From contig DATKCD010000013.1 of assembly GCA_035544735.1 (NCBI GenBank), positions 3,412 through 67,411 on the forward strand: a stretch of 64,000 bases of DNA, read 5' to 3'. The notes under the pieces are model-generated. The model saw nothing but the letters and a program-made list of their open reading frames with translations, was not told where the DNA came from and did no database searches. This stretch comes from Thermoanaerobaculia bacterium. Its GTDB lineage: Bacteria; Acidobacteriota; Thermoanaerobaculia; Gp7-AA8. Made by a program: the position numbers and the translations under genes. The stretch's first letter is position 1. Each line of letters begins with the position of its first letter. Shown here one piece after another: positions 2,807-60,188 of the stretch.

Positions 2807-3257
2807 GGGTCAGTCCTCCTCGGGCCGCTCCATCGGAGCGGGCGGTGAGCTCCCGGGCGCTCGGGTCGCGCCGGGTCGGGCGATGATCGCGCGCCGGTCA
2901 GTGGTGAAGCGACCGGGTGCGATCACGCCATACGGCGGAAGACGGCCGCCGCCACGGAACGTGACGCCCTGGGCGCTTTCTCTCGAAGCAACGGACTCCG
3001 GTTCCCGGACGTGCAACATCGACCATGAGCATGAAACCCACCTCCCACCCGCGCCGTTCGGCGCGGAGACCACGAAGCTCGGGCAATGCAGCGCCACATC
3101 TCTCCCGGATCGACACGAAGAGCGTGAAAGGAAGGCGACGAAACGGGAGGTCGCTGGAGGAGCGGCAGGCGGCCCCTGCGAGTCCCGCCGGCTGCGGGAA
3201 CCAGCCACTCCCCCCCGAAGACGAATGCGAACGAATCGATGGATCTAGGATACACCC

Positions 3258-3512
3258 GTCTGGAGCGTCTGGAGCGTCTTGGGCGTCTGGAGCGTCTTGG
3301 GCGTCTTGGGCGTCTGGAGCGTCTTGGGCGTCTGGAGCGTCTTGGGCGTCTTGGATCGGTGATACGCCAGAGTCAGAATGCAGAATGCAGAATGCAGAAT
3401 GCAGAATGCAGAATGCAGAATGCAGAAAGATGCTGGCTCACCTCCGGACTTTCGCAACTCTTCAGACACTCCTTGACGCCCTGGACACTCGAGACGCCCG
3501 AGACGCCGCAGC
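3258..3512. repeat. Composite inverted tandem-repeat element A
   Basis: Direct array of the 9-bp unit GCGTCTKGR, about 11 copies (3258-3354). Then CAGAATG heptamer x7 plus CAGAAAG (3374-3429). Then about 4 reverse-complement 9-mers GACGCCNNG (3474-3512). The element ends at the stop codon of the anti-sigma gene. Confidence 0.85.
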
Positions 3513-3979
3513 TATTCGCCCGCGAGGGCGGTATGCACGGTGAGCAGGACGGTGGCGCAGCCGAGGGTGAAGACGGCGGCGAGCAGGGAGGGAGAGACCG
3601 AGGCTCCTTCGATCGCGGAAGCGACGGCCCGGTCGAGTGAGAAATTCGCAATGACGTCCCACTTCCACGTCAGCAGCGCCGCCCAGCAGAATGCGATTAC
3701 GCCGAATCCGACGCGCTGGAGCAGATGGAGCGGCTGGAGGACCTTCTGGTCGGAGATTCGGCTGCCGAACAGTTCCGCCTTGAGCCTCAGAATGCTCGGA
3801 TCGACCGGCGCCGGAGAGCGGGGAGCCTCCGAGGCCATCCGGTTCATCCAGACGGCGACCTTCGCCGCCTCGGAGCAGTCGGCGCACGACCGCGCGTGGT
3901 CGCGCAGCGAATCCGGCAGATCGCCGTGCTTCATCGCGCGGATCAGATCGAGCTCGAGATCGCATCCTTCCCTTCTCAC
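3512..3979 (-). CDS. Anti-sigma factor, zf-HC2 type, membrane-spanning
   Basis: 155 aa. H-x3-C-x2-C motif (HARSCADC) near the N-terminus and a C-terminal TM segment. GTG start overlaps the ECF sigma stop as GTGA. Confidence 0.65.
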   Translation of the reverse strand: MRREGCDLELDLIRAMKHGDLPDSLRDHARSCADCSEAAKVAVWMNRMASEAPRSPAPVDPSILRLKAELFGSRISDQKVLQPLHLLQRVGFGVIAFCWAALLTWKWDVIANFSLDRAVASAIEGASVSPSLLAAVFTLGCATVLLTVHTALAGE

Positions 3980-5294: not shown

Positions 5295-5750
5295 ATGGCT
5301 CGCTATCAGGTCGAAGAGTACGTCCGGTGGGAGGACATCGATGCCGCCGGCATCATCAACTACCAGGCCTATCTCCGGTTCTTCGGCCTCGCGGAGGCGG
5401 AGCTGTTCCGGTCGGCGGGGCTGAGCTACCGCTATCTGTTCGACGTCCTTCACCTCTGGCTCCCGCGCGTCCGGGTGGAGTGCGACTTCCACGTGCCGGT
5501 CACCCTCGACGAGCTGCTGGTAGTCGATGCCTTCTTCGGGAAGATCGGGCGGACCTCGATTCATCTGCAGTTCGAAGTGCGGCGGAAGAGCGACCCGGGA
5601 ACGATCGTCGCAACGGGGAAGTACGTTCTGGTGGCCGTGCGGCAGGGGGAATTCGCACCGGTCGCCGTGCCCGAGGACGTTCGAAACCGGATCGCGCCGT
5701 TCGTGGAGACGACGTCTCCGCGCGGGCGGGACGACCCGAACGGGAGCTGA
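5295..5750 (+). CDS. Hotdog-fold acyl-CoA thioesterase (4HBT/YbgC-like)
   Basis: Start refined to MARYQVEEYVRWEDIDAAGIINYQAYLRFF. Typical 4HBT N-terminal strand and helix. Confidence 0.7.
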   Translation: MARYQVEEYVRWEDIDAAGIINYQAYLRFFGLAEAELFRSAGLSYRYLFDVLHLWLPRVRVECDFHVPVTLDELLVVDAFFGKIGRTSIHLQFEVRRKSDPGTIVATGKYVLVAVRQGEFAPVAVPEDVRNRIAPFVETTSPRGRDDPNGS

Positions 5751-5757
5751 GAGCCCG

Positions 5758-6429
5758 ATGCAACGCAACGACGACGATCTGCGAACGACCAGGCGCTACG
5801 CGTTCGCGACGCCGCTCCAGGCCGTGTTCGGCACCACGCCGATCGGGGTCCGAAACCTCGGATCATACGGGCTTCAGGCGGAGCACTCCGACCCGATCAA
5901 GCTGGGATCGAACGCCAGGATCGTGTTCGACATCCCTGCCGCGCGCGAGAAGATCGCCATTCGCGGCAGGCTCGTCTGGAGCCGTCTGTCGAAGACCCCG
6001 AACGAGAGGGGAAAGTATCTCTACCTGAGCGGGGTGCAGTTCGATGAATCCGCCCCATTCCCGCCTCAGGCCCTCGACACGCTCGTCCAGCTCGGCCTGG
6101 CGGTGCCGGACGACGATTCGCTCCAGAGAAAGCGCGACGAGCTCGCGCGCCGGCAGCAGGAGCGCTCGCAGGTCCGCGTCGTCCAAGTCCCTGCCGAAGA
6201 GCTCCCATCCGATCAGGCCCTGCTGGTCCAGCATGCGATCGCCCAGCTCCGCGGGAATCCCGACGAAGCGCAGAAGTGGTATCAGCGCGCCCGCTTTTCT
6301 CCTCCCGTGGTCGACGGCAAGCCGCTCCCCTATCGCGAAGACGTCGTCGCCATCTGGGAGTATCTGGGGCGCACGATCGCCATCGACGTCGTCGCCCGGG
6401 TCCTCGAGCGCGACCGAGCCCCGGAGTAG
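5758..6429 (+). CDS. PilZ-domain protein (putative c-di-GMP receptor)
   Basis: Start refined to MQRNDDDL. RR...R then NLGSYG about 20 aa later, and a GVQF..L-like end of the domain. Confidence 0.5.
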   Translation: MQRNDDDLRTTRRYAFATPLQAVFGTTPIGVRNLGSYGLQAEHSDPIKLGSNARIVFDIPAAREKIAIRGRLVWSRLSKTPNERGKYLYLSGVQFDESAPFPPQALDTLVQLGLAVPDDDSLQRKRDELARRQQERSQVRVVQVPAEELPSDQALLVQHAIAQLRGNPDEAQKWYQRARFSPPVVDGKPLPYREDVVAIWEYLGRTIAIDVVARVLERDRAPE

Positions 6430-6669
6430 CCGGGGCGTCTGGAGCGTCTGGAGCGTCTAGGGCGTCTTGGGCGTCTTGGGCGTCTAGGGCGTCTCGGGCG
6501 TCTTGGGCGTCTTGGGCGTCTTGGGCGTCTTGGGCGCTCGTCAATAGAACGCGGGACGTAGCAGGTAGAACGTAGAGAGCCTGACGGATCCGCAGACGAT
6601 CTGGACGCCGCAGACGCCGACGCTCCAGACGCTCCAGACGCTCGAGACGCCCTAGACGCCCTAGACGCC
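6430..6669. repeat. Inverted 9-bp tandem-repeat element B
   Basis: Forward GCGTCTNGN array of about 12 copies (6433-6536). Loop with TAGAACG x3. Reverse-complement array of about 8 copies (6596-6669). It spans exactly from the PilZ-gene stop to the murB stop, and the last unit CTAGACGCC contains the murB stop. Confidence 0.85.
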
Positions 6670-7749
6670 GCCGAATCCGATGAAGTTCGGCTCGGGGCGA
6701 AGGGCGATGCCGAATCGGTTCGCGACGGTCCGCTGGATCTCGGCGACGAGGCGCAGGACGTCGGTCGCCTTTCCCCCTCCACGATTGACGATCGCGAGCG
6801 TGTGCTTGGTGGAAAGCCCGACGGCTCCTGCGCCGTATCCCTTGTGGAATCCCGCCTGCTCGATGAGCCACGCAGCCGAGAGCTTGACCCGCCCCTCTCC
6901 GGTGGGCCACGAGGGGATGCGGTCGGCTCGGAGCGACGGCTCGCCGTCGACGGCCCGCCGGAGGAAGGTGTGGAGCTCTTCGGTCGAGATGATGGGATTC
7001 ATGAAGAACGAGCCGTCGCTCCGGGTGTCGGCGTCGGCGGGGTCGAGAACCATTCCCTTGCGCCGGCGGATCTCTAGCACCGCCTCGCGGACCTGAGCGA
7101 GGGTCGGCGCCCCGCCGAAGCGCTCGTCCACGAGCGCCCGCAGCTCGGGATATCGAAGCGCCGCCGCCCCGCCCGGCTGGAGCCGATACGTCACGCTCAA
7201 CACGACGAGCTCGTCGCGGCCCTCCGCCTTGAACATGCTGTCGCGATAGGTGAAGCGGCACTGCGCGTTCGAGAGGGATCGGACCCGTCCCGAGGCGACC
7301 GAGAGCACCTCGACTTCGACGACGCTCTCCGCGACCTCCTGACCGTAGGCGCCGACGTTCTGGATCGGCGTCGCACCGACCGAGCCGGGGATGCCGGAGA
7401 GGGCCTCGAAGCCGGCCCAGCCGCGCTCGCAGGCGAGCGCGGCGATCCGGTCCCACTCCTCGCCGGCGCCGACGCGCAGCCGGACCGCATCCCCCTCGCG
7501 CCCGGTGTCGATCCCGCGCAGCGCGTTGCGCAGGACCAGGCCGTCGAACCCCTCGTCGGCGATCAGGACATTGCTCCCGCCGCCGAGAAGAAACAGCGGC
7601 ACTCCCGCCCTTCCCGCCCACTCGATCCCGGCCCGCACCTGATCGAGAGAAGCCCCCTCGAGAAACCAGCGCGCCGGGCCGCCGATGCCGATCGTCGTCA
7701 TCGGCGCGAGCGGTACGTTCTCGCGCATGCCTGGAAGGAGATCGATCAT
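6661..7749 (-). CDS. murB: UDP-N-acetylenolpyruvoylglucosamine reductase
   Basis: FAD-binding N-domain (GIGGPARWF...LGGGSNVL) and MurB C-domain. Start trimmed to MIDLLPGMRENVPL. The 848-aa ORF overlapping in another frame is an artefact. Confidence 0.85.
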   Translation of the reverse strand: MIDLLPGMRENVPLAPMTTIGIGGPARWFLEGASLDQVRAGIEWAGRAGVPLFLLGGGSNVLIADEGFDGLVLRNALRGIDTGREGDAVRLRVGAGEEWDRIAALACERGWAGFEALSGIPGSVGATPIQNVGAYGQEVAESVVEVEVLSVASGRVRSLSNAQCRFTYRDSMFKAEGRDELVVLSVTYRLQPGGAAALRYPELRALVDERFGGAPTLAQVREAVLEIRRRKGMVLDPADADTRSDGSFFMNPIISTEELHTFLRRAVDGEPSLRADRIPSWPTGEGRVKLSAAWLIEQAGFHKGYGAGAVGLSTKHTLAIVNRGGGKATDVLRLVAEIQRTVANRFGIALRPEPNFIGFGGV

Positions 7750-8000
7750 CGGCGGGACTCGCCGGCGCCGGACCCTGCGCGCCGCGACCCGCGAAGTATC
7801 TCCACAATTCGGCGCGATGCCAAGCCGCCGGCGACCCCCCGCGGATCTCCGCGCCGAAGCCGGAATGAGGCGTTTGCTGGCGATCTGATCCGCAGTCAGG
7901 ACAGACGGACTCGTCCGCACGGCGGCATTGGGCACGCGTTTTGTGTTGCCAATGGGTTGCTCCGCGATCCTGCGGAGCGACGACAAGGAGGAAAGAAGTC

Positions 8001-19894: not shown

Positions 19895-20445
19895 CGCCGC
19901 TTCGCGGCAAATGCAGAATGCAAAATGTAAAAGAGTGTCGCGATAGTTCGGGCGGTCAGTGCGCTCCCGAATGATCATGACCCGGAAGGCTTCTCACGGA
20001 ATCGGGGGCCGAGTCGTAGGAGTCCGCCGGCCGCAAGGCCGGCCCCTCTCCCGGTGGGAGAGGGTGCCGAGCGAAGCGAGGCGGGTGAGGGGCGCGGGCG
20101 GTGACGGAGTGACCGTACGCACGACGGACGAAGCGGAGCAACTGCGCGCGCCGCGAGCTTCGCGCGAGGCGAGCGGGCGGAGAATCCCCTCACCCGCCTG
20201 CGCCTCCCTTCGGTCGGCTCCGGCACCCTCTCCCAGAGGGAGAGGGGCGTCTCGCGCAGCCTGAGCCGAGTGCGAAAGGGACCTCATGCCACGGAGTCAG
20301 ATCGAGAAGGCGCTGCGCATGCGCGGACGTGCCGAGGCGAAGGAAAGTCATCACACTCGAGCGCGCTGACCGCCGGGAACCAGCGTGACGTCCTTTTACA
20401 TTTTGCATTTTGCATTCTGCATTCTGCATTTGCCGCGAAGCGGCG
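19895..20445. repeat. MITE-like element E
   Basis: Left end CGCCGCTTCGCGGCAAATGCAGAATGCAAAATGTAAAAG. The right end is its reverse complement with two extra heptamer units. The core has nested palindromes: CCCTCTCCCGGTGGGAGAGGG(TGCC) at 20040-20065 pairs with (GGCA)CCCTCTCCCAGAGGGAGAGGG at 20222-20250, and GCGAGGCGGGTGAGGGGCG pairs with CGCCCCTCACCCGCCTGCGC. No plausible ORF inside. Confidence 0.7.
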
Positions 20446-26202: not shown

Positions 26203-26715
26203 ATGCTTCGGGCCCGGGATGAAGAGATCGGACGCACGCCCGAGCTGGTGATCGCGACCCTGACCGACGCGCGCGAGGCCGACACGGCCCGCGCGGCGCT
26301 CGGCTCGGCCGGAATCGCGGCGCGCGTCACCACCATCGCCACTCCGAAGCTCGGAGCCGGCGGCGAGCGCGTCGACGTCAGGTTCGGCGTCTCCGTCGCA
26401 CCCCACGACGCCCGCCACGCCATCGAGATCCTCCACGCGCGCCTCACCTCGACCGACGGCGACGCCATCGAGCTCGATCTCGACGAGCCCCTCGAGCCTC
26501 CCCGCCACGTCCGTTGTCCCGAATGCGAATCCGAACAGGTCAGAACCACCTCGACCGTCATCGGCGCCCTTCTCGGCGCCGCCGTCCTCGCCGCCGTCGG
26601 CTGGGCCATCGGTCAGGAAGACGTCTTCTACCTCGCCGCCGTCATCGTCGCCCTCATCCTGGTCCTCGGTCCCAACCGCCGATGCCTCCAGTGCGGCCAT
26701 CGCTGGATGGAGTAG
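26203..26715 (+). CDS. DUF2007-like protein with C-terminal TM segment and Cys4 zinc-ribbon
   Basis: 170 aa. CPECES...CLQCGH. Confidence 0.5.
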   Translation: MLRARDEEIGRTPELVIATLTDAREADTARAALGSAGIAARVTTIATPKLGAGGERVDVRFGVSVAPHDARHAIEILHARLTSTDGDAIELDLDEPLEPPRHVRCPECESEQVRTTSTVIGALLGAAVLAAVGWAIGQEDVFYLAAVIVALILVLGPNRRCLQCGHRWME

Positions 26716-27144
26716 GAGCGTCTGGGGCGTCTGGAGCGTCTGGGGCGTCTGGAGCGTCTTGTGCGTCTAGGGCGTCTTGTGCGTCTTGGGCGTCTTGTGC
26801 GTCTCGGGCGTCTTGTGCGTCTAGGGCGTCTTGTGCGTCTTGTGCGTCTTGAGCGTCTAGGGCGTCTTGTGCGTCTTGAGCGTCTGGAGCGTCTAGGGCG
26901 TCTTGTGCGTCTTGAGCGTCTTGAGCGTCTGGAGCGTCTGGAGCGTTTTGAGCGTCTGGAGCGTCTGGACCATCTTGGGCGTCTGGCGCGGCACGGCCCG
27001 GTGCAGGTGAATCGATTCCAGACGCACGAGGAGCACGAGGCGCCCCAGACCCCCTAGACGCACAAGACGCTCTAGACGCTCTAGACGCCCTAGACGCCCT
27101 AGACGCCCTAGACGCACAAGACGCACAAGACGCTCAAGACGCCC
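26716..27144. repeat. Inverted 9-bp tandem-repeat element C (largest copy)
   Basis: About 30 direct GCGTCTNGN units (26716-26990). 60-bp spacer. About 10 reverse-complement units (27050-27144). Runs from the DUF2007 stop to the terC stop. Confidence 0.9.
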
Positions 27145-28138
27145 CATTTCCCGGCTCTTCGGGCTCTTCGATGGGGGGAAAGGCCCGCGGGTCGGGGAGG
27201 ACGTCGGCGGCGGGTCCGAGGCGGCGGGCGCGGATCACGGAGGCGAGCACGGCGAGCAGGAGCACGCCGAGAATCACCGACAAGGACGCGACGATGGGGA
27301 TCTTCACCCACTCGGAGACGACCATCTTGACGCCGACGAAGGTAAGGATGACGGCGAGTGCGGGGCGAAGGTAGTAGAAGCGGTCGATGACGCCGGCGAG
27401 AAGGAAGTAGAGAGCCCGGAGGCCGAGAATCGCGAAGACGTTGGATGTATAGACGATGAAGGGGTCGTGGGTAACGGCGAAGACGGCGGGGATGGAGTCG
27501 ACGGCGAAGATCAGATCGCTCGTCTCGATGACGATCAGCACGAGGACGAGCGGAGTGAGGACGACATTCCCGGCCGCATCCCTTATGTAGAATTTTTCTC
27601 CCTGATAGTCCGAGGTCATCGCGAAGCGCCGGCGCACGAGCTTCACGAGCGGGTTGTCGTCGATGTGGACCGAGTCCTCCTCCTTCTGGACGGCGATCTT
27701 GATTCCGGTGTAGATCAGGAAGAAGCCGAAGACGTAGATGATCCAGTGGAAGCGGACGATGAGGGCCGCGCCGATGCCGATCATGATCGCGCGCATGACG
27801 AAGGCGCCGAGAATGCCCCAGTAGAGGACGCGGTGCTGGAAGGCGGCAGGAACCCGGAACGCCGAGAAGATCAGAACGAAGACGAAGATGTTGTCGACGC
27901 TGAGCGACTTCTCGATGACGTATGCGGTGAAGTACTCGAGGGCGGGCTCGGGCCCCTTCCACCAGTAGACGACGGCGTTGAAGATCAGCGCGAGGGAGAT
28001 CCAGACGGCGCTCCAGGCGATCGCTTCGCGGATCGAGACCGCATGCGATTTCCGGTGGAAAACGCCGAGGTCGAGGGCGAGGACGCCCAGGACGAACACC
28101 GTGAAGATCACCCACGGAAGGACCGTGCTCAGCTCCAT
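27134..28138 (-). CDS. terC: TerC-family integral membrane protein
   Basis: 334 aa. Multiple TM helices with conserved charged residues (EKSLSVDNIFVF). Confidence 0.85.
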   Translation of the reverse strand: MELSTVLPWVIFTVFVLGVLALDLGVFHRKSHAVSIREAIAWSAVWISLALIFNAVVYWWKGPEPALEYFTAYVIEKSLSVDNIFVFVLIFSAFRVPAAFQHRVLYWGILGAFVMRAIMIGIGAALIVRFHWIIYVFGFFLIYTGIKIAVQKEEDSVHIDDNPLVKLVRRRFAMTSDYQGEKFYIRDAAGNVVLTPLVLVLIVIETSDLIFAVDSIPAVFAVTHDPFIVYTSNVFAILGLRALYFLLAGVIDRFYYLRPALAVILTFVGVKMVVSEWVKIPIVASLSVILGVLLLAVLASVIRARRLGPAADVLPDPRAFPPIEEPEEPGNGAS

Positions 28139-44422: not shown

Positions 44423-45292
44423 TCAGTTTTCCGACGCACGGCGCGCTCCCTCCGCTCCGAGCACCCCGCACCACCACTCTCCTTTCGATGCCTCTTCGAC
44501 GACGTTCAGTCCGGTGAGCCGTGCGGCGGCGACGACTTCGTCGCGGTACGGAAGCATGATCCCGCTCACGATCGCCCGTCCGCCGGAGGCGAGCATGGCG
44601 GCGAGGCGGGGAAGATTGGGGACGATCACGTCGGGCAGGATGTTCATCGTCACGAGATCGAAGCGGGCGGAGGGGGCGAGGGCGTCGATCGGCCCGATGA
44701 AGAATTCGATCCGGCCCGGGGGGACCTGGTTGCGCTCGAGGTTCTTCGGGACGATCTCCCACGTCACGGGATCGTCGTCGAAGGCGAAGACGCGCGCGGC
44801 GCCGAGACGGAACATCCCGATCGCGAGGATTCCACTCCCCGTTCCGACGTCGAGACCGCGGCGCTCGACCATCTCGATCGTCTCGAGCATCTCGAGGCAG
44901 AGCGCAGTCGACTCGTGCGAGCCCGTCCCGAACGCCCGCTCCTGAGGAATTACGATCGGATCGCGTCCCGGCTCGCGCGGCAGCAGCGAAGCGTCCGGAG
45001 CCACCACGAACCGCCGGCCGATGAAGAGCGGCTCGAGCGACTGCCGGTACAGCTCCAGCCAGTCCTTCCGTTCGCGGTCCTGCTCCTCGAGCTCCAGCCC
45101 CTCGACCTCTCCCAGCACGGCGCGCGCTTCGGCACGCTCCTCCGCCGAGTCGAACCAGCACGCCACGACCGTCCGCCCTCCCCGCTCCCCGATCTCGCAC
45201 CCGCGGCAGCTCGTCAGGAACAGCAGCCCCTCCACGCGATCATCGAGATCCGTCCGCGGCTCGTAGACGATCTCGAGAACAAAGTCGCGCAT
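44423..45292 (-). CDS. prmA: Ribosomal protein L11 methyltransferase
   Basis: Start refined to MRDFVLEI. SAM motif LDVGTGSGILAI and TMNIL. The upstream part of the listed ORF (KTLKTLKT...) is a translated repeat. Confidence 0.85.
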   Translation of the reverse strand: MRDFVLEIVYEPRTDLDDRVEGLLFLTSCRGCEIGERGGRTVVACWFDSAEERAEARAVLGEVEGLELEEQDRERKDWLELYRQSLEPLFIGRRFVVAPDASLLPREPGRDPIVIPQERAFGTGSHESTALCLEMLETIEMVERRGLDVGTGSGILAIGMFRLGAARVFAFDDDPVTWEIVPKNLERNQVPPGRIEFFIGPIDALAPSARFDLVTMNILPDVIVPNLPRLAAMLASGGRAIVSGIMLPYRDEVVAAARLTGLNVVEEASKGEWWCGVLGAEGARRASEN

Positions 45293-45738
45293 GGGCGTCT
45301 TGGGCGTCTTGGGCGTCTTGGGCGTCCTGGGCGTCTGGAGCGTCCTGGGCGTCTTGGGCGTCTTGAGCGTCTTGAGCGTCTTGAGCGTCTTGAGCGTCTT
45401 GAGCGTCTTGAGCGTCGAGTATCGATTCACGTCGAAGATCCGGACCGTCCCCTGCCGTCGGCCGCACCGGGTCGGCCCGAGAGCCCGAGGAGTGAGGAGC
45501 AGGATCGTTCTATCTTCTACGTTCTACGTTCTACGTTCTATGTTCTGCGTTCAAGAAGATCTACAGAGGCTCCAGACGCTCCAGACGCTCCAGACGCTCC
45601 AGACGCTCCAGACGCTCCAGACGCTCCAGACGCTCCAGACGCCCTAGACGCTCCAGACGCCCTAGACGCCCTAGACGCCCTAGACGCTCAAGACGCCCTA
45701 GACGCTCCAGACGCCCTGGACGCCCAAGACGCTCAAGA
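45293..45738. repeat. Inverted 9-bp tandem-repeat element D
   Basis: About 14 direct GCGTCTNGN units (45293-45416). Unique spacer. ACGTTCT-type heptamer x5-6 (45511-45556). About 19 reverse-complement units (45565-45738) that cover the dnaJ stop. Confidence 0.9.
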
Positions 45739-51372: not shown

Positions 51373-51510
51373 TCCGGGCAAATGCAAAATGCACAATGCA
51401 AAATAATGCAAAATGGACAATCCAAAAAGGAGCCGACGACCCTCGACCGTCGCCGACCGATTCTGGCTGCTTCTCTTTGGATTGTGCATCGTGCAGTTTG
51501 CATTCGGCCG
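51373..51510. repeat. Heptamer-array hairpin element F
   Basis: Left arm CCTCCGGGCAAATGCAAAATGCACAATGCAAAATAATGCAAAATGGACAATCCAAAAAG. Right arm is its imperfect reverse complement (CTTTGGATTGTGCATCGTGCAGTTTGCATTCGGCCGGAGG). 37-bp loop. Confidence 0.75.
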
Positions 51511-56661: not shown

Positions 56662-56776
56662 CCGCGCGAGTCTAGGGGTCGGGCAGACCCGGAGTCCAGA
56701 AGAGTCGGGGTTCGGGAGTCGGCAGTCTCGCGGTTCCCCGCCCGGCTCCAGACTCCAGACTCTACAATGGGCGGCG

Positions 56777-58210
56777 ATGGCCGAATCCGAGAGCCCCGCC
56801 GAGCCCCGGCCGCTGCTGTCGGTCATCGTTCCCTGCTACAACGAGCGGTCGACGGTGGCGGAGCTTCTGAGACGCGTGAGGAAGGTCCCGGTCGACAAGG
56901 AGATCATCGTCGTCGACGACCAGTCGCGCGACGGCTCGCGCGACATCGTGGCCGCCCTGGCGGCGGAGTGGCCCGAGCTGCGCCAGGAGATCCAGCCGCG
57001 AAACATGGGAAAGGGGGCCGCGCTCCGGCGCGGGATCGAGCTCGCGCGCGGCGAGATCGTCATCATTCAGGATGCGGATCTCGAGTACGACCCGGAGGAG
57101 TACCCGAAGCTGATCCAGCCGATCGTCGACGGGCACGCGGACGTCGTCTATGGTTCGCGATTCGAAGGCTACCCGCGACGCGTCATGCTCTACTGGCACA
57201 GGCTCGGCAACGTTTTTCTCACATTCCTCTCGAACGCGACGACCAACCTCGACCTGACCGACATGGAGACGTGCTACAAGGTCTTCCGCCGCGAGGTGAT
57301 CCAGTCGATCCGGCTCAACTCGAACCGCTTCGGTTTCGAGCCCGAGGTCACGGCGAAGGTCGCGAAGCGCGGGTACCGGATCTACGAGGTCCCGATCGCC
57401 TACTACGGCCGCGACTACTGGGAAGGAAAGAAGATCAACTGGAAGGACGGCTTCTCGGCGATCTGGACGATCCTGCGGTACGGCCTGTTCGAAGATCCCG
57501 CGAGCGAGCCGGCCGGCTATCTCACGCTGCGCCGCAAGTCGACCCTCCGGAATTATCACGAATGGATCTGGGACCGGATCCGGCCGCACGTGGGGCAGCG
57601 CGTGCTGGAGGTCGGAGCGGGGAGCGGGAGTCTGACGCGCCTGCTCTACGGGCGCGATCTGGTGGTCGCGACCGAGAAGGAGACGCCGTATCTGGACCGT
57701 CTGACCAACGCATTCCGGCGGCGGCCGGGGATCGAAGTCGAGGCGCTCGACCTCGATGCGCCGGGAGACCTCTCGCGCTTCATCGAGCGTCGCTTCGACA
57801 CGATCCTGCTGGTCAACGTCCTCGAGCACCTCGGCGACGACGCCGGCGCGCTCCGGCGCGCCCATTCGATCCTCGAGCCGGGGGGAACGGTGATCGTTTA
57901 CGTGCCGGGAGACAGCCGGCTGTTCGGACCTCTCGATCGCGGCGTGGGGCACCACCGGCGCTACGACCCCGAGCAGCTCCGGCAGCTTTTGTCGGAGGCG
58001 GGCTTCTCGACGATCGAGCTCGGATGGCAGAACCGGGCGGGCCGCATCGGATGGAGGGTCAACTCCGGGCTGCTGCGGCGGCGCGAGCTGCCGTCGACCC
58101 AGTCGAAGATGTTCGATCGTCTGGTGCCGCTGCTGCGGCGGCTGGAGGGGGAGCGGCCGCGCAGGGGGCTCAGCCTCGTCGCGGTGGGTCGCAAGGGAGA
58201 ATCGCGATGA
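56777..58210 (+). CDS. Family-2 glycosyltransferase (polyprenyl-phosphate mannosyl/glucosyl-transferase, Dpm1-like) fused to a class-I SAM methyltransferase domain
   Basis: LLSVIVPCYNE...VVDDQSRDGS...IQDADLEYDP (GT-A DXD). Then LEVGAGSGSLT...LLVNVLEHL (MTase motifs I and post-I). Confidence 0.85.
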   Translation: MAESESPAEPRPLLSVIVPCYNERSTVAELLRRVRKVPVDKEIIVVDDQSRDGSRDIVAALAAEWPELRQEIQPRNMGKGAALRRGIELARGEIVIIQDADLEYDPEEYPKLIQPIVDGHADVVYGSRFEGYPRRVMLYWHRLGNVFLTFLSNATTNLDLTDMETCYKVFRREVIQSIRLNSNRFGFEPEVTAKVAKRGYRIYEVPIAYYGRDYWEGKKINWKDGFSAIWTILRYGLFEDPASEPAGYLTLRRKSTLRNYHEWIWDRIRPHVGQRVLEVGAGSGSLTRLLYGRDLVVATEKETPYLDRLTNAFRRRPGIEVEALDLDAPGDLSRFIERRFDTILLVNVLEHLGDDAGALRRAHSILEPGGTVIVYVPGDSRLFGPLDRGVGHHRRYDPEQLRQLLSEAGFSTIELGWQNRAGRIGWRVNSGLLRRRELPSTQSKMFDRLVPLLRRLEGERPRRGLSLVAVGRKGESR

Positions 58211-59226
58211 GCGAGCGCGCGGCGATCCTGCTCGCGGGGGGGGCCGGCACGCGCCTCTGGCCTCTGAGCACCGACGAGCGGCCCAAGCAGTTCCTCCGGA
58301 TCTTCGAAGGACGCTCGCTCCTGCAGATCGCCTTCTCCCGCATGCGGAACCTCCTTCCGGCCGACCGGATCTTCGTCGCGGCCCACGAGCGCCATCGCGA
58401 AGCGATCTTCGCCGAGCTGCCCGAGCTCCCCCCCGACAACGTCCTGCTCGAGCCCGAGCGGCGGAACACCGCGCCCGCGATCGCCGTCTCCTGCTCGCAG
58501 GTCGCGCGCACCCTCGCCGGCGATCCGGTCATCGGGATCTTCCCCTCCGATCACTTCGTCGCGGACGAGGACGCATTCGTCCGCACCGTCGACCGCGCCT
58601 TCCGCTTCGCCGCGACCGAGCCGTTTCTCGTCACGATCGGAATCGATCCCGATCATCCCAACACCGGCTTCGGATATCTCGAGCTCGGAGAGACGATGGG
58701 GGACGAAGTCATCCGGCTGCTCCGCTTCGTCGAGAAGCCGACGCGGGAGCGCGCCGAGGAGTTCGTCCGGAGCGGGCGGTTCGTCTGGAACGGAGGGATG
58801 TTCGTCTGGCGCCGGAGCACCTTCGAGAACGCGCTGGAGGCGACCGCTCCGGAGATCGCGGCGATCGCCCGGAAGCTCGCCGGCGCTTCGGCAGCCGAGC
58901 GGAAGACCCTCTACGCGCAGATGCCTTCGATCTCGATCGACTTCGCCGTGATGGAGAAGGCGCCGAACGTCGCGACCGTCCGGGGATCGTTCGGCTGGTC
59001 CGACGTCGGGTCGTGGAAGGCCGTCGCGAAGATCGTCGGGCAGGGACTGGAGGAGGGAGTGATCCGCGAAGAGTCGCCCGGCTCGCTGGTGCACGCCCGA
59101 GGCGACCGCCCCGTCATCCTCATCGGCGTGCCCAACATCGCCGTCGTCGACGTCCCCGAAGGACTCCTCGTCATCGACCTCGACCGATCCGAGCACCTCG
59201 CCTCGGTCCTCAAGAAGCATGAGTAA
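58207..59226 (+). CDS. manC: Mannose-1-phosphate guanylyltransferase (GDP-mannose pyrophosphorylase)
   Basis: ATG at 58207 overlaps the upstream stop (ATGA). LLAGGAGTRLWPLS nucleotidyl-transferase motif. The listed 1746-aa ORF is an artefact. Confidence 0.85.
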   Translation: MSERAAILLAGGAGTRLWPLSTDERPKQFLRIFEGRSLLQIAFSRMRNLLPADRIFVAAHERHREAIFAELPELPPDNVLLEPERRNTAPAIAVSCSQVARTLAGDPVIGIFPSDHFVADEDAFVRTVDRAFRFAATEPFLVTIGIDPDHPNTGFGYLELGETMGDEVIRLLRFVEKPTRERAEEFVRSGRFVWNGGMFVWRRSTFENALEATAPEIAAIARKLAGASAAERKTLYAQMPSISIDFAVMEKAPNVATVRGSFGWSDVGSWKAVAKIVGQGLEEGVIREESPGSLVHARGDRPVILIGVPNIAVVDVPEGLLVIDLDRSEHLASVLKKHE

Positions 59227-59347
59227 GGCATTGATGATTGATGATTGATGATTGATGATTGACGGCTCGATCATCGAGCATCAATCATAGATCATCAATC
59301 AAAAATGCCTTTCAATCATCAATCATAGATCATAGATCATCAATGCC
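59227..59347. repeat. TGATTGA-heptamer inverted-repeat element G
   Basis: GGCATTGA(TGATTGA)x4...central palindrome GCTCGATCATCGAGC...TCAATCA/TAGATCA units...TCATCAATGCC. Terminal inverted repeats GGCATTGATGA/TCATCAATGCC. The right repeat contains the ATG (59343-59345) of the next gene. Confidence 0.85.
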
Positions 59348-60188
59348 TTCTGGCGTGTTCGACATTCACCTTCACGTGCAGCCCTGGGAGATGCTGCGGG
59401 ACGAAGTGCGGCCGCTCATCGACGACGAGTCGCACCGCGGCGCCGCGGAGATTCTCGCCTCGGCTCCGCGCCTCCTCGACTGGATGGATAAGGAAGGGAT
59501 CGCGCGCGCCTGCTGCATCAACTACGTCTCCCCCGACGTGATGGGATTCCCCGCCGCGGTGAACGACTGGATCGCGACCTTCACGCGCGCCCATCGCGAC
59601 CGCCTCCTCCCCGTCGGCTCGGTCCATCCGAAGACCACTCCCGACCTCCGCTCCGAGATCCTCCGCCTGCTCGACCTCGGCATGCGGATGATCAAGATCC
59701 ATCCGCCGCATCAGCTCTTCGCCGCGAATGCCTACCGCTCCGGCCTGCCGGGCCTCGCCGCCGTCTACGCCGAATGCGAGACGCGCGGAGTCCCGGTGAT
59801 GTTCCATACCGGAACGTCGATCTTTCCGGGAGCGCGGAACGTCTACGCCGACCCGATGCCGATCGACGACGTCGCCGTCGATTTTCCGCGCCTCACGATC
59901 ATCCTGGCGCATGCCGGCAGACCTCTCTACGGCGACACCGCCTTCTTCCTCGTGCGGAGGCATCGCAACGTGTTCCTCGATCTGTCCGGCATCCCTCCGA
60001 AAGCGATCCCGCGATACGTCCCGCGCCTGGCCCACATTTCGGAGCGGGTCCTCTGGGGAACCGACTGGCCCTCGCCCGGCGTGGTCTCGCCCCGCGCGAA
60101 CGTCGAGCAGTTCCGCGCCCTCGGTCTCGGAGAAGAAGTCGAGCGCAAGATCCTCGGCGAAAACGCCGCCCTGTTGTTCCCGACGTAG
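59343..60188 (+). CDS. Amidohydrolase-2-family TIM-barrel metal-dependent hydrolase
   Basis: Start refined to MPSGVFDIHLHVQ (H-x-H metal motif at the N-terminus). HTG and later His/Asp (GTDWP). Confidence 0.7.
   Translation: MPSGVFDIHLHVQPWEMLRDEVRPLIDDESHRGAAEILASAPRLLDWMDKEGIARACCINYVSPDVMGFPAAVNDWIATFTRAHRDRLLPVGSVHPKTTPDLRSEILRLLDLGMRMIKIHPPHQLFAANAYRSGLPGLAAVYAECETRGVPVMFHTGTSIFPGARNVYADPMPIDDVAVDFPRLTIILAHAGRPLYGDTAFFLVRRHRNVFLDLSGIPPKAIPRYVPRLAHISERVLWGTDWPSPGVVSPRANVEQFRALGLGEEVERKILGENAALLFPT

Follow-up and report, generated by a model that had tools for sequence, protein, structure and literature searches.

Inverted arrays of a 9-bp tandem repeat in intergenic spacers of a Thermoanaerobaculia bacterium and its relatives

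Two-armed arrays at the ends of genes

The stretch of DNA considered here, referred to as the window, comprises 64,000 nucleotides (nt) of chromosomal DNA of about 68% G+C from the metagenome-assembled genome of an uncultured soil bacterium of the Thermoanaerobaculia (assembly GCA_035544735.1, contig DATKCD010000013.1, positions 3,412 to 67,411), and four of its spacers are occupied by opposed arrays of a degenerate 9-bp tandem repeat. Gene calls are based on Pfam and on G+C content at third codon positions (GC3), and the arrays are intergenic, lying between genes that are called by GC3 or backed by Pfam. Locus 1 is found downstream of an ECF sigma-factor gene and the minus-strand gene that follows it (3512-3979), the stop codon of the latter sitting 4-5 nt from the 3′ arm. 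Locus 2 separates two converging genes, an uncharacterised gene (5527-6429) and murB (6661-7986, minus strand); its 5′ arm begins 5 nt past the TAG stop (6427-6429) of the former, and the TAG stop of murB falls in the outermost unit of its 3′ arm. Locus 3 also separates converging genes, one for a small membrane protein (26203-26715) and terC (27134-28138, minus strand), and here the 5′ arm begins 2 nt past the TAG stop (26713-26715) of the first gene; in the 3′ arm the outermost unit has a variable triplet that doubles as the TGA stop of terC. Locus 4 is situated within the gene string hrcA-grpE-dnaK-dnaJ-prmA; its outermost unit on the dnaJ side includes that gene's TGA stop (45733-45735, minus strand), and on the other side 2 nt separate the last full unit from the start codon of prmA (complement of 45290-45292).

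The period-9 arrays were located with Tandem Repeats Finder (TRF; Table 1). All four loci carry GCGTCTNGN on the plus strand in the left arm and on the minus strand in the right arm, and the order is always 5′-(GCGTCTNGN)n ... (NCNAGACGC)n-3′ with a heterogeneous centre in between. A preliminary description of the window had reported four loci with this common layout, and TRF confirms them with the earlier coordinates correct to within a few bases; its further statement that about 10 to 30 copies per run flank a unique spacer stands as regards the two arms, but the right arm of locus 1 has only about three units and the supposedly unique spacers hold heptamers in three loci. A two-unit pattern, GCGTCTNGNGCGTCT with at most one mismatch, is matched 95 times in the window against an expectation of 0.52 from 100 dinucleotide-preserving shuffles (largest shuffle count 3), and all matches except one fall within the four loci. 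Isolated GCGTCT..AGACGC “seeds” were sought outside the four loci and none was found.

Seven positions of the 9-bp unit are fixed (GCGTCT-G-): positions 1-6 and 8 are nearly invariant and positions 7 and 9 are free, with positions 7-9 drawn from a limited set (TGG, GGA, AGG, TGT, TGA, CGG, GGG, AGA and CGA). An invariant core with variation only at positions 7 and 9 is seen in all array-bearing genomes compared. Across the 9-mer loci an arm has between 4 and 30 units, four not being the modal length, and the 5′ arm of locus 1 has a higher-order period of 27 nt; periods of this kind indicate that blocks of units were duplicated. The centres of loci 1 to 4 (about 120, 67, 56 and 147 nt) are mutually unrelated apart from the heptamer YAGAAYG, which is tandem in two of them and present as two dispersed copies in a third (6540-6580). 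Since the centres have only heptamers in common, neither a cargo nor a small gene is conserved among them.

A very long imperfect hairpin at each locus, as proposed in the preliminary description, agrees with the fold predictions. The arms are 80-88% complementary over 120-130 nt, and the predicted RNA folds reach -298 kcal/mol (z = -14.5) for locus 3, -299 kcal/mol (z = -15.7) for the mRNA strand of locus 4 and -171 kcal/mol (z = -10.6) for locus 2. The predicted hairpin is a long helix with arms of 100-130 nt and about one mismatch every 9 nt, and in the minimum-energy folds 81-97% of units have positions 1-6 paired, compared with just 52% for position 7. The two arms of one 9-mer locus share variants at the variable positions no more than arms of different loci do (0.24 vs 0.31), so that each arm seems to homogenise alone, leaving positions 7 and 9 usually mismatched; co-evolution of the 9-mer arms was dropped on this account.

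Contact with stop codons is a general feature. At about 19 junctions the stop codon lies within -9 to +9 nt of the outermost unit, and the stops of terC, murB and dnaJ (TGA or TAG) are all formed by the first unit's variable triplet. Other convergent gene pairs of the window are separated by just 2-9 nt, and it is because such spacers are so short that the arrays abut stop codons; target specificity is not needed. The terC stop lies inside the first unit in every lineage, as the TGA of GCGTCTTGA in the window (27134-27144) and as the TAG of ATAGGACG in relatives (loci L150, 6976-7050; L160, 4730-4860; L161, 1143-1250). By a rough, uncontrolled count made by eye, a stop triplet is present in about 8 of 14 unit families.

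Copies within operons fit exactly into the gap from the stop of one gene to the start of the next, a geometry found at four independent junctions. The dnaJ/prmA junction reads TGA[GCGTCTTGG...CCAAGACGC]CC-ATG in the window and TGA-C[...]CC-ATG in L147, and the gyrB/gyrA junction of a relative (L001), which also holds a 9-mer array, reads TGA-C[...]TT-ATG; in L150 and L160 the stop-hairpin-start geometry recurs at the cox4/terC junction, there with other unit families. The prmA start is supported by an N-terminal alignment of homologues, one of them from an array-free genome, and the C-terminus of DnaJ is native. Elsewhere in the window an (ATTGATG)n/(CATCAAT)n hairpin at 59225-59349 lies between an NTP-transferase gene (TAA stop 59224-59226) and an amidohydrolase gene whose ATG (59334) is in the last unit of the 3′ arm, the span from stop to start being 59224-59336; in the predicted fold (z = -5.1) the amidohydrolase AUG pairs with the bases directly after the UAA.

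The preliminary description had considered a preference for convergent gene junctions, and neither this nor the bidirectional terminator that it suggested survives as a general rule. Locus 4 is inside an operon, as is the gyrB-gyrA array, and arrays in such positions must be read through; divergent spacers are also filled by hairpins of sister families described below (rsmE/speE in L097 and L145, 12175-12414 in L150 and 56668-56765 in the window). An identity as intrinsic terminators was rejected on the need for read-through in operons and on the lack of T-runs: no T-tract was seen after the arms of the window loci, and no terminator-like site at locus 4. Canonical hairpin-plus-T-tract terminators between window positions 20001 and 40000 number 10, against 7.9 in shuffled sequence, and all are inside genes. 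Sigma-70-like promoters in the same interval number 0 against 1.5 expected, and no promoter is predicted within the centre of locus 4.

A fifth, small and degenerate inverted pair with GAGTCYNGA units fills the divergent spacer at 56668-56765 and leaves no obvious room there for a promoter. It ends 4 nt before an ATG at 56767, in a frame that appears to differ from that of the listed start of a glycosyltransferase open reading frame (ORF) at 56777, about 14 nt from the pair.

Table 1. Arms and centres of the four 9-mer loci (positions in the window; strand on which GCGTCTNGN is read)
Feature	Position	Strand	Content
Locus 1, 5′ arm	3257-3354	+	10.9 copies (TRF) of GCGTCTNGN; variable triplets GGA and TGG
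Locus 1, centre	3355-3474		(CAGAATG)x7.7 array at 3374-3427
Locus 1, 3′ arm	3475-3507	-	3.7 copies (TRF), about 3 units
Locus 2, 5′ arm	6433-6536	+	11.6 units of GCGTCTNGN
Locus 2, centre	6537-6603		two TAGAACG heptamers
Locus 2, 3′ arm	6604-6669	-	7.7 units
Locus 3, 5′ arm	26716-26984	+	29.9 units of GCGTCTNGN
Locus 3, centre	26985-27040		short loop and degenerate units
Locus 3, 3′ arm	27041-27144	-	11.6 units
Locus 4, arm adjoining prmA	45295-45416	+	13.6 units
Locus 4, centre	45417-45563		(CGTTCTA)x6.7 at 45506-45552; the mRNA strand reads TAGAACG
Locus 4, arm adjoining dnaJ	45564-45738	-	19.4 units

Distribution, sister families and turnover

A genome collection with one genome per species was scanned for the arrays, as were metagenome and viral collections; the counts given here are among the matches listed and depend on the search pattern. 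The full two-armed layout is present at 15 of the loci examined, in four assemblies: 4 in the window, 8 in the metagenome-assembled genome (MAG) JBOGJQ01 (Thermoanaerobaculia), 2 in the MAG CAWCBB01 (Acidobacteriota) and 1 on the JGI contig Ga0415153_0003273, which is locus L147. Many array contigs were found in both of the MAGs. The arm that reads GCGTCT comes first in 15 of the 15 two-armed loci, and at the window loci and the 11 loci of relatives the plus arm is followed by the minus arm 6-210 nt away. Because a structure of two such arms is its own reverse complement, this fixed order is a real handedness, and it separates the family from the opposite palindrome. The recovery of the arrays from at least three other Thermoanaerobaculia and Acidobacteriota assemblies bears out the dispersed family that the preliminary description had surmised. 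Identity to the best PrmA homologues is just 65%, the named ones all being from Thermoanaerobaculia, and the TerC protein encoded beside locus 3 is 100% identical to HVR42065.1.

Most of the 95 listed matches in the genome collection (Streptomyces, Paraburkholderia, cyanobacteria and others) were rejected as relatives, being single arrays or coding repeats; single arrays are forced by the search pattern and are no evidence of relationship. A metagenome scan with a 6-unit pattern gave, among the matches listed, only single-arm homogeneous arrays in unrelated contigs and no two-armed copies, and the viral scan gave 7 unrelated direct arrays among its listed matches. Among the cyanobacteria, Symploca sp. 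SIO2E9 (L019, L030, L041, L052, L053 and L078) carries a repeat of about 150 nt that resembles a MITE (miniature inverted-repeat transposable element), with inverted ends GGGTGAACGAAA / TTTCGCTCACCC and 3-5 central copies of GCGTCTGGA, the same 9-mer in another architecture; in other cyanobacterial loci GCGTCTGGT is mixed with 7-8-mer arrays.

Pairing of TRF arrays with arrays of reverse-complement units identifies at least a dozen inverted-array families with units of 6-10 nt that coexist in these genomes. Their units include AATGCAR/GAACGCA, ATTGATG, TAGGGAC/GGGGTTAG, ATAGGACGN, GTAGCTG, TCGTTGT, CGTGAA and GAGCCC, among others, and one orientation is kept in each sister family examined, as in 9 of 9 loci for AATGCAR. 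The AATGCAR/GAACGCA unit is the heptamer met in the centres of the 9-mer loci (tandem in loci 1 and 4, two copies in locus 2), and it forms hairpins of its own in the window at 19895-20445 and 51378-51510, the mirrored arms of which are 95% complementary over 38 nt; this family is also found in JBOGJQ01, L097, L145 and L147. The centre of the first of these 7-mer hairpins contains a further, nested inverted repeat, GCCCCTCTCCCGGTGGGAGAGGGTGCCG (20042-20069 and 20221-20248), which suggests that elements have inserted within elements. In L097, L150 and similar relatives most of the longer spacers hold an inverted array, and L096 and L152, both from the same other Thermoanaerobaculia genome (GCA_035525215.1), are almost free of arrays. 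In 13 of 16 unit families G outnumbers C in the 5′ arm (p = 0.02, the families not being independent), a handedness that matches the G-rich arm of the Xanthomonas repeats described below; this is only a hint.

In JBOGJQ01 a quasi-palindromic core of about 150 nt (GTCATCCTGAG..GAAGGATCTCCTCAGC..GCTGAGGAGATCCTTC..CTCAGGATGAC) occupies the centre of at least six 9-mer loci (L026, L027, L028, L054, L057 and L083), in either orientation and with differing junctions. A variant of the core is found in the centres of 8-mer hairpins in L097 (3780-3890) and L145 (2745-2920), and the core is absent from the 64-kb window. Two explanations offer themselves: attraction of a second element to the hairpin centres, or spread of the composites as such.

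Comparison of orthologous spacers points to a turnover of units at persisting sites. The dnaJ-prmA spacer contains an inverted array in all five lineages that have the gene pair (PrmA 60-82% identical), the arms being 9-mers in the window and L147, of the GGGGTTAG type in L148, and 8-mers (GAGTCTNG) with the inserted palindromic core in L097 and L145. At the 3′ end of terC the window has GCGTCTNGN and three relatives have (ATAGGACGN)n, with TerC proteins 79-83% identical. At both places the site thus persists while unit families are replaced. Hairpins are also gained or lost: two stand beside the rsmE stop in L097 and are absent from the same spacer in L145, and L150 and L160 have a cox4-terC hairpin that the window lacks. 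The orthologous 7-mer hairpin between prmA and gltA has nearly identical arms in three genomes and loops that are unalignable. In one hairpin compared between L097 and L145, a change from G:C to A:U runs through the repeated units of both arms, which could reflect selection for pairing or the copying of one arm from the other.

Relation to described repeats

The closest described case is a set of convergent repeats, (GGGANTN)n, in Xanthomonas campestris and X. axonopodis; these are heptamer arrays in which the core is fixed and two positions are free. Each genome has 70-75 convergent pairs that could form a stem-loop, and the arrays lie on average 28 nt from the upstream ORF, near its stop codon (Rehm et al. 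2015, PMC4692102). They occur mostly between co-directional or convergent genes, are under-represented between divergent ones and are often retained between corresponding genes of both species with varying length and sequence, and they have no known function (PMC4692102). The present arrays are likewise intergenic and opposed, at close range in 15 loci, with a fixed core and two free positions and a position near stops. They differ in having a 9-nt unit of another sequence, in belonging to a different phylum with many coexisting unit families, in arms of up to 30 units as against a mode of 4 in Xanthomonas, and in filling the whole spacer so as to touch stop and start codons. Neither the G-quadruplex unit nor the preference for four units of the Xanthomonas arrays is found: only some of the units here could form G-quadruplexes, GGG occurring in about 9 of 11 units of locus 2 and about 8 of 28 of locus 3.

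A broader class is formed by the long simple sequence repeats (LSSRs; Mrazek et al. 2007), the heptamer short tandemly repeated repetitive (STRR) sequences of cyanobacteria and the TAACTGA repeats of Beggiatoaceae (MacGregor 2015, PMC4679880). The arrays fall within the LSSR/STRR type (period 9, 3.7-29.9 copies per arm, non-coding) and resemble this class in their tandem units of 5-11 nt, in an intergenic excess confined to particular lineages, in slippage and in the position of some arrays a few nt from starts. Members of the class are mainly single direct arrays, unlike those described here, in which opposed arms of fixed orientation are the rule; the TAACTGA study counted 169 direct sets and one indirect set (PMC4679880).

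The preliminary description had found no match among the repeat families known to it, and this holds for REP, BIME, ERIC, CRISPR, RUP, NEMIS and Rfam, but an analogue has been described in Xanthomonas. Repetitive extragenic palindromes (REPs) are single imperfect palindromes of 20-40 nt with a GTAG or CGTC head, the GTAG class being associated with the REP-associated tyrosine transposase (RAYT) (Di Nocera et al. 2013, PMC3733652). Like the REPs, their mosaic elements (BIMEs) and their inverted dimers (REPINs) in E. coli and Pseudomonas, the arrays are abundant extragenic palindromes, they form inverted dimers that fold into something larger and they lack target-site duplications. They also share with REP and BIME an enrichment after genes and in operons, for which roles in mRNA 3′ stabilisation and termination have been proposed. 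Unlike REP and BIME, they consist of a non-palindromic 9-mer in tandem that pairs only with the opposite arm, and they were rejected as members on this ground; each unit does include CGTC, but the REP stem, loop and tail are missing, and no RAYT (an IS200/IS605-like tyrosine transposase) occurs among the roughly 50 proteins of the 64-kb window.

In eukaryotic Foldback elements a variable centre is flanked by long inverted arms, which are made up of short subrepeats in tandem. The arrays share with Foldback transposons and MITEs a non-coding, dispersed nature and terminal inverted repeats, and they are unlike them in that no target-site duplication, related transposase or autonomous copy was found and in that the centres are unrelated between loci. 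An identity as MITEs was rejected because the inverted termini are accompanied by no target-site duplication at 14 loci. No prokaryotic element of the Foldback type turned up in a single literature search, and no paper among those searched links Thermoanaerobaculia with tandem repeats.

Other identities were set aside. A CRISPR was rejected on the contiguous 9-mers without spacers, the inverted arms and the lack of cas domains among the window proteins. Coding repeats were rejected too; frame 2 is open (RLG/RLE/RLV), yet the arrays are found outside ORFs, in either orientation, and no conserved protein is interrupted by them. At the gathering score only tRNAs matched Rfam in the window and 7 related loci, with nothing at E <= 1 for locus 3, and a tRNA/tmRNA scan of the window gave none.

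Taken together, the feature is real, non-random and structurally striking, and it is a variant of a known but unexplained kind. Paired arrays near gene ends have been noted for years in Xanthomonas and cyanobacteria with no function found. The form seen in Thermoanaerobaculia is both extreme and uncommonly informative, with arms of up to 30 units, many families, wedging between stop and start in essential operons and swaps of family, and this combination gives testable predictions that separate a selfish palindrome from an RNA 3′-end structure or coupling device.

Proposed dispersal, possible RNA roles and alternatives

The reading preferred here, to which a probability of roughly 0.5 is given, is that of a dispersed REP/REPIN- or MITE-like palindrome whose arms are tandem arrays evolving by slippage and which acts through RNA hairpins at gene ends. 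The occurrence of one 9-mer with two free positions and one handedness at unrelated spacers argues for copying from existing elements rather than local birth, and arm-by-arm slippage explains the patterns of length and variants. The 9-mer family and its dozen sisters would have been copied into many intergenic spacers, as in dispersal of the REP/REPIN or MITE type, while replication slippage would let each arm gain, lose and homogenise units independently. When transcribed, the element would fold into a hairpin with arms of 100-130 nt, which most probably would give the upstream message a REP/BIME-like RNA structure marking out or protecting its 3′ end. Within operons the hairpin may hold the stop and start codons side by side, so that the stem would be opened at its base, and the following start uncovered, by the ribosome that terminates there, and translational coupling would be preserved. 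We infer these hairpin and coupling roles from the geometry of the junctions.

Several observations weigh against this reading. There is no target-site duplication at 14 loci and no transposase or HUH-type gene among the roughly 50 window proteins, and no autonomous copy (an array pair enclosing an ORF) was seen among the matches listed from the genome, metagenome and viral scans, a check that covered the fetched genome-collection loci (2 to 8 kb each) and the metagenome and viral loci. An order of unit variants common to two loci was not found either, and there is thus no sign of recent copy-and-paste. As regards RNA-level roles, the comparison of variants between arms gives the 9-mer family no covariation support for a stem beyond the fixed core, a role at 3′ ends makes no sense for the copies in divergent spacers, and Shine-Dalgarno use is moderate (20 of 51 crude starts vs a background of 21%), so that the missing Shine-Dalgarno sequence before prmA is weak evidence for coupling.

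A bolder form of the proposal, and a rather unlikely one, is that the arrays represent a new class of prokaryotic “foldback” elements, self-propagating hairpins with tandem arms that lie between a stop and the next start or stop and bridge essential operons. Such elements would settle in the few nucleotides between a stop codon and the following start or stop, and would persist in gyrB-gyrA and dnaJ-prmA since the stem joins stop and start; on termination the ribosome would melt the stem at its base, to re-initiate on the far side of a 200-450 nt insert, and unit families would succeed one another at the same sites.

Selection by the host could instead account for the arrays without mobile DNA, though this is held to be improbable on balance. 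Stems would here end or insulate transcripts and block 3′ exonucleases in a compact, GC-rich and terminator-poor genome, and tandem repeats would merely be the way in which stems lengthen. The retention of a hairpin at the same sites across lineages despite the change of unit family fits this view, as do the orthologous 7-mer hairpins with conserved arms and diverged loops, the compensatory unit changes, the canonical terminators that are no commoner than chance and the failure to find a target-site duplication or transposase. Local birth, however, fails to explain why the same 9-mer, free positions and orientation recur at 15 of 15 loci in four assemblies, and it leaves the gain and loss of hairpins at several spacers between relatives unexplained; moreover, the dnaJ-prmA and gyrB-gyrA copies need read-through, and divergent spacers have no 3′ end to protect. 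Less probable still is that the arrays are binding sites for a DNA- or RNA-binding protein, either one of the ribbon-helix-helix type polymerising on direct repeats of 7-9 bp, or gyrase or IHF as at the BIMEs of E. coli, with a function in organising the nucleoid or its topology at gene boundaries. Seven invariant positions out of nine with two floating look more like a recognition motif than a pure stem requirement, and ribbon-helix-helix proteins such as omega and MetJ bind tandem boxes of 7-8 bp, but at least a dozen unrelated unit families with the same architecture would each need a protein of their own, no candidate gene lies near the arrays and the constant opposed pairing would be unexplained. 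As for G-quadruplexes, units that end in GG and are followed by G give GGG every 9 nt (G3-N6); 9 such GGG runs follow one another, with 6-nt loops, in the 5′ arm of locus 2, runs of 4 occur in locus 4, the excess of G in most 5′ arms (13 of 16 families) points the same way and such structures were proposed for the GGGAATC repeats of Xanthomonas (Rehm et al., PMC4692102). Yet in locus 3, the largest array, no more than about one unit in four has a GGG run, the AATGCAR and ATTGATG families have none and a hairpin with the complementary arm would compete, all of which makes this explanation a decidedly poor candidate.

An assembly artefact, whether from collapsed or chimeric repeats or from hairpin chimeras of the de Bruijn graph, is very unlikely. 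Short-read contigs of relatives do often start or end inside arrays (L027, L050, L067, L098 and L146) and copy numbers may be inexact, but the arrays of the window are internal to the contig and flanked by differing, intact housekeeping genes, and the family occurs in independent assemblies that apparently come from different assemblers. The orthologous dnaJ-prmA site holds a 9-mer array in both the window and L147, two assemblies of one sequencing run (L145 and L146) agree on the right arm, and the copy numbers of one sister array are identical in three assemblies (L149-L151). The preliminary description had named artefact and absence from relatives as the outcomes that would overturn it, and the independent assemblies answer both in favour of a real family. 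The repeats nevertheless carry a warning, in that short-read assemblies of this clade break at nearly every such spacer. Several prmA homologues are found on single-gene contigs of about 1 kb, the repeats systematically fragmenting the assemblies of the clade.

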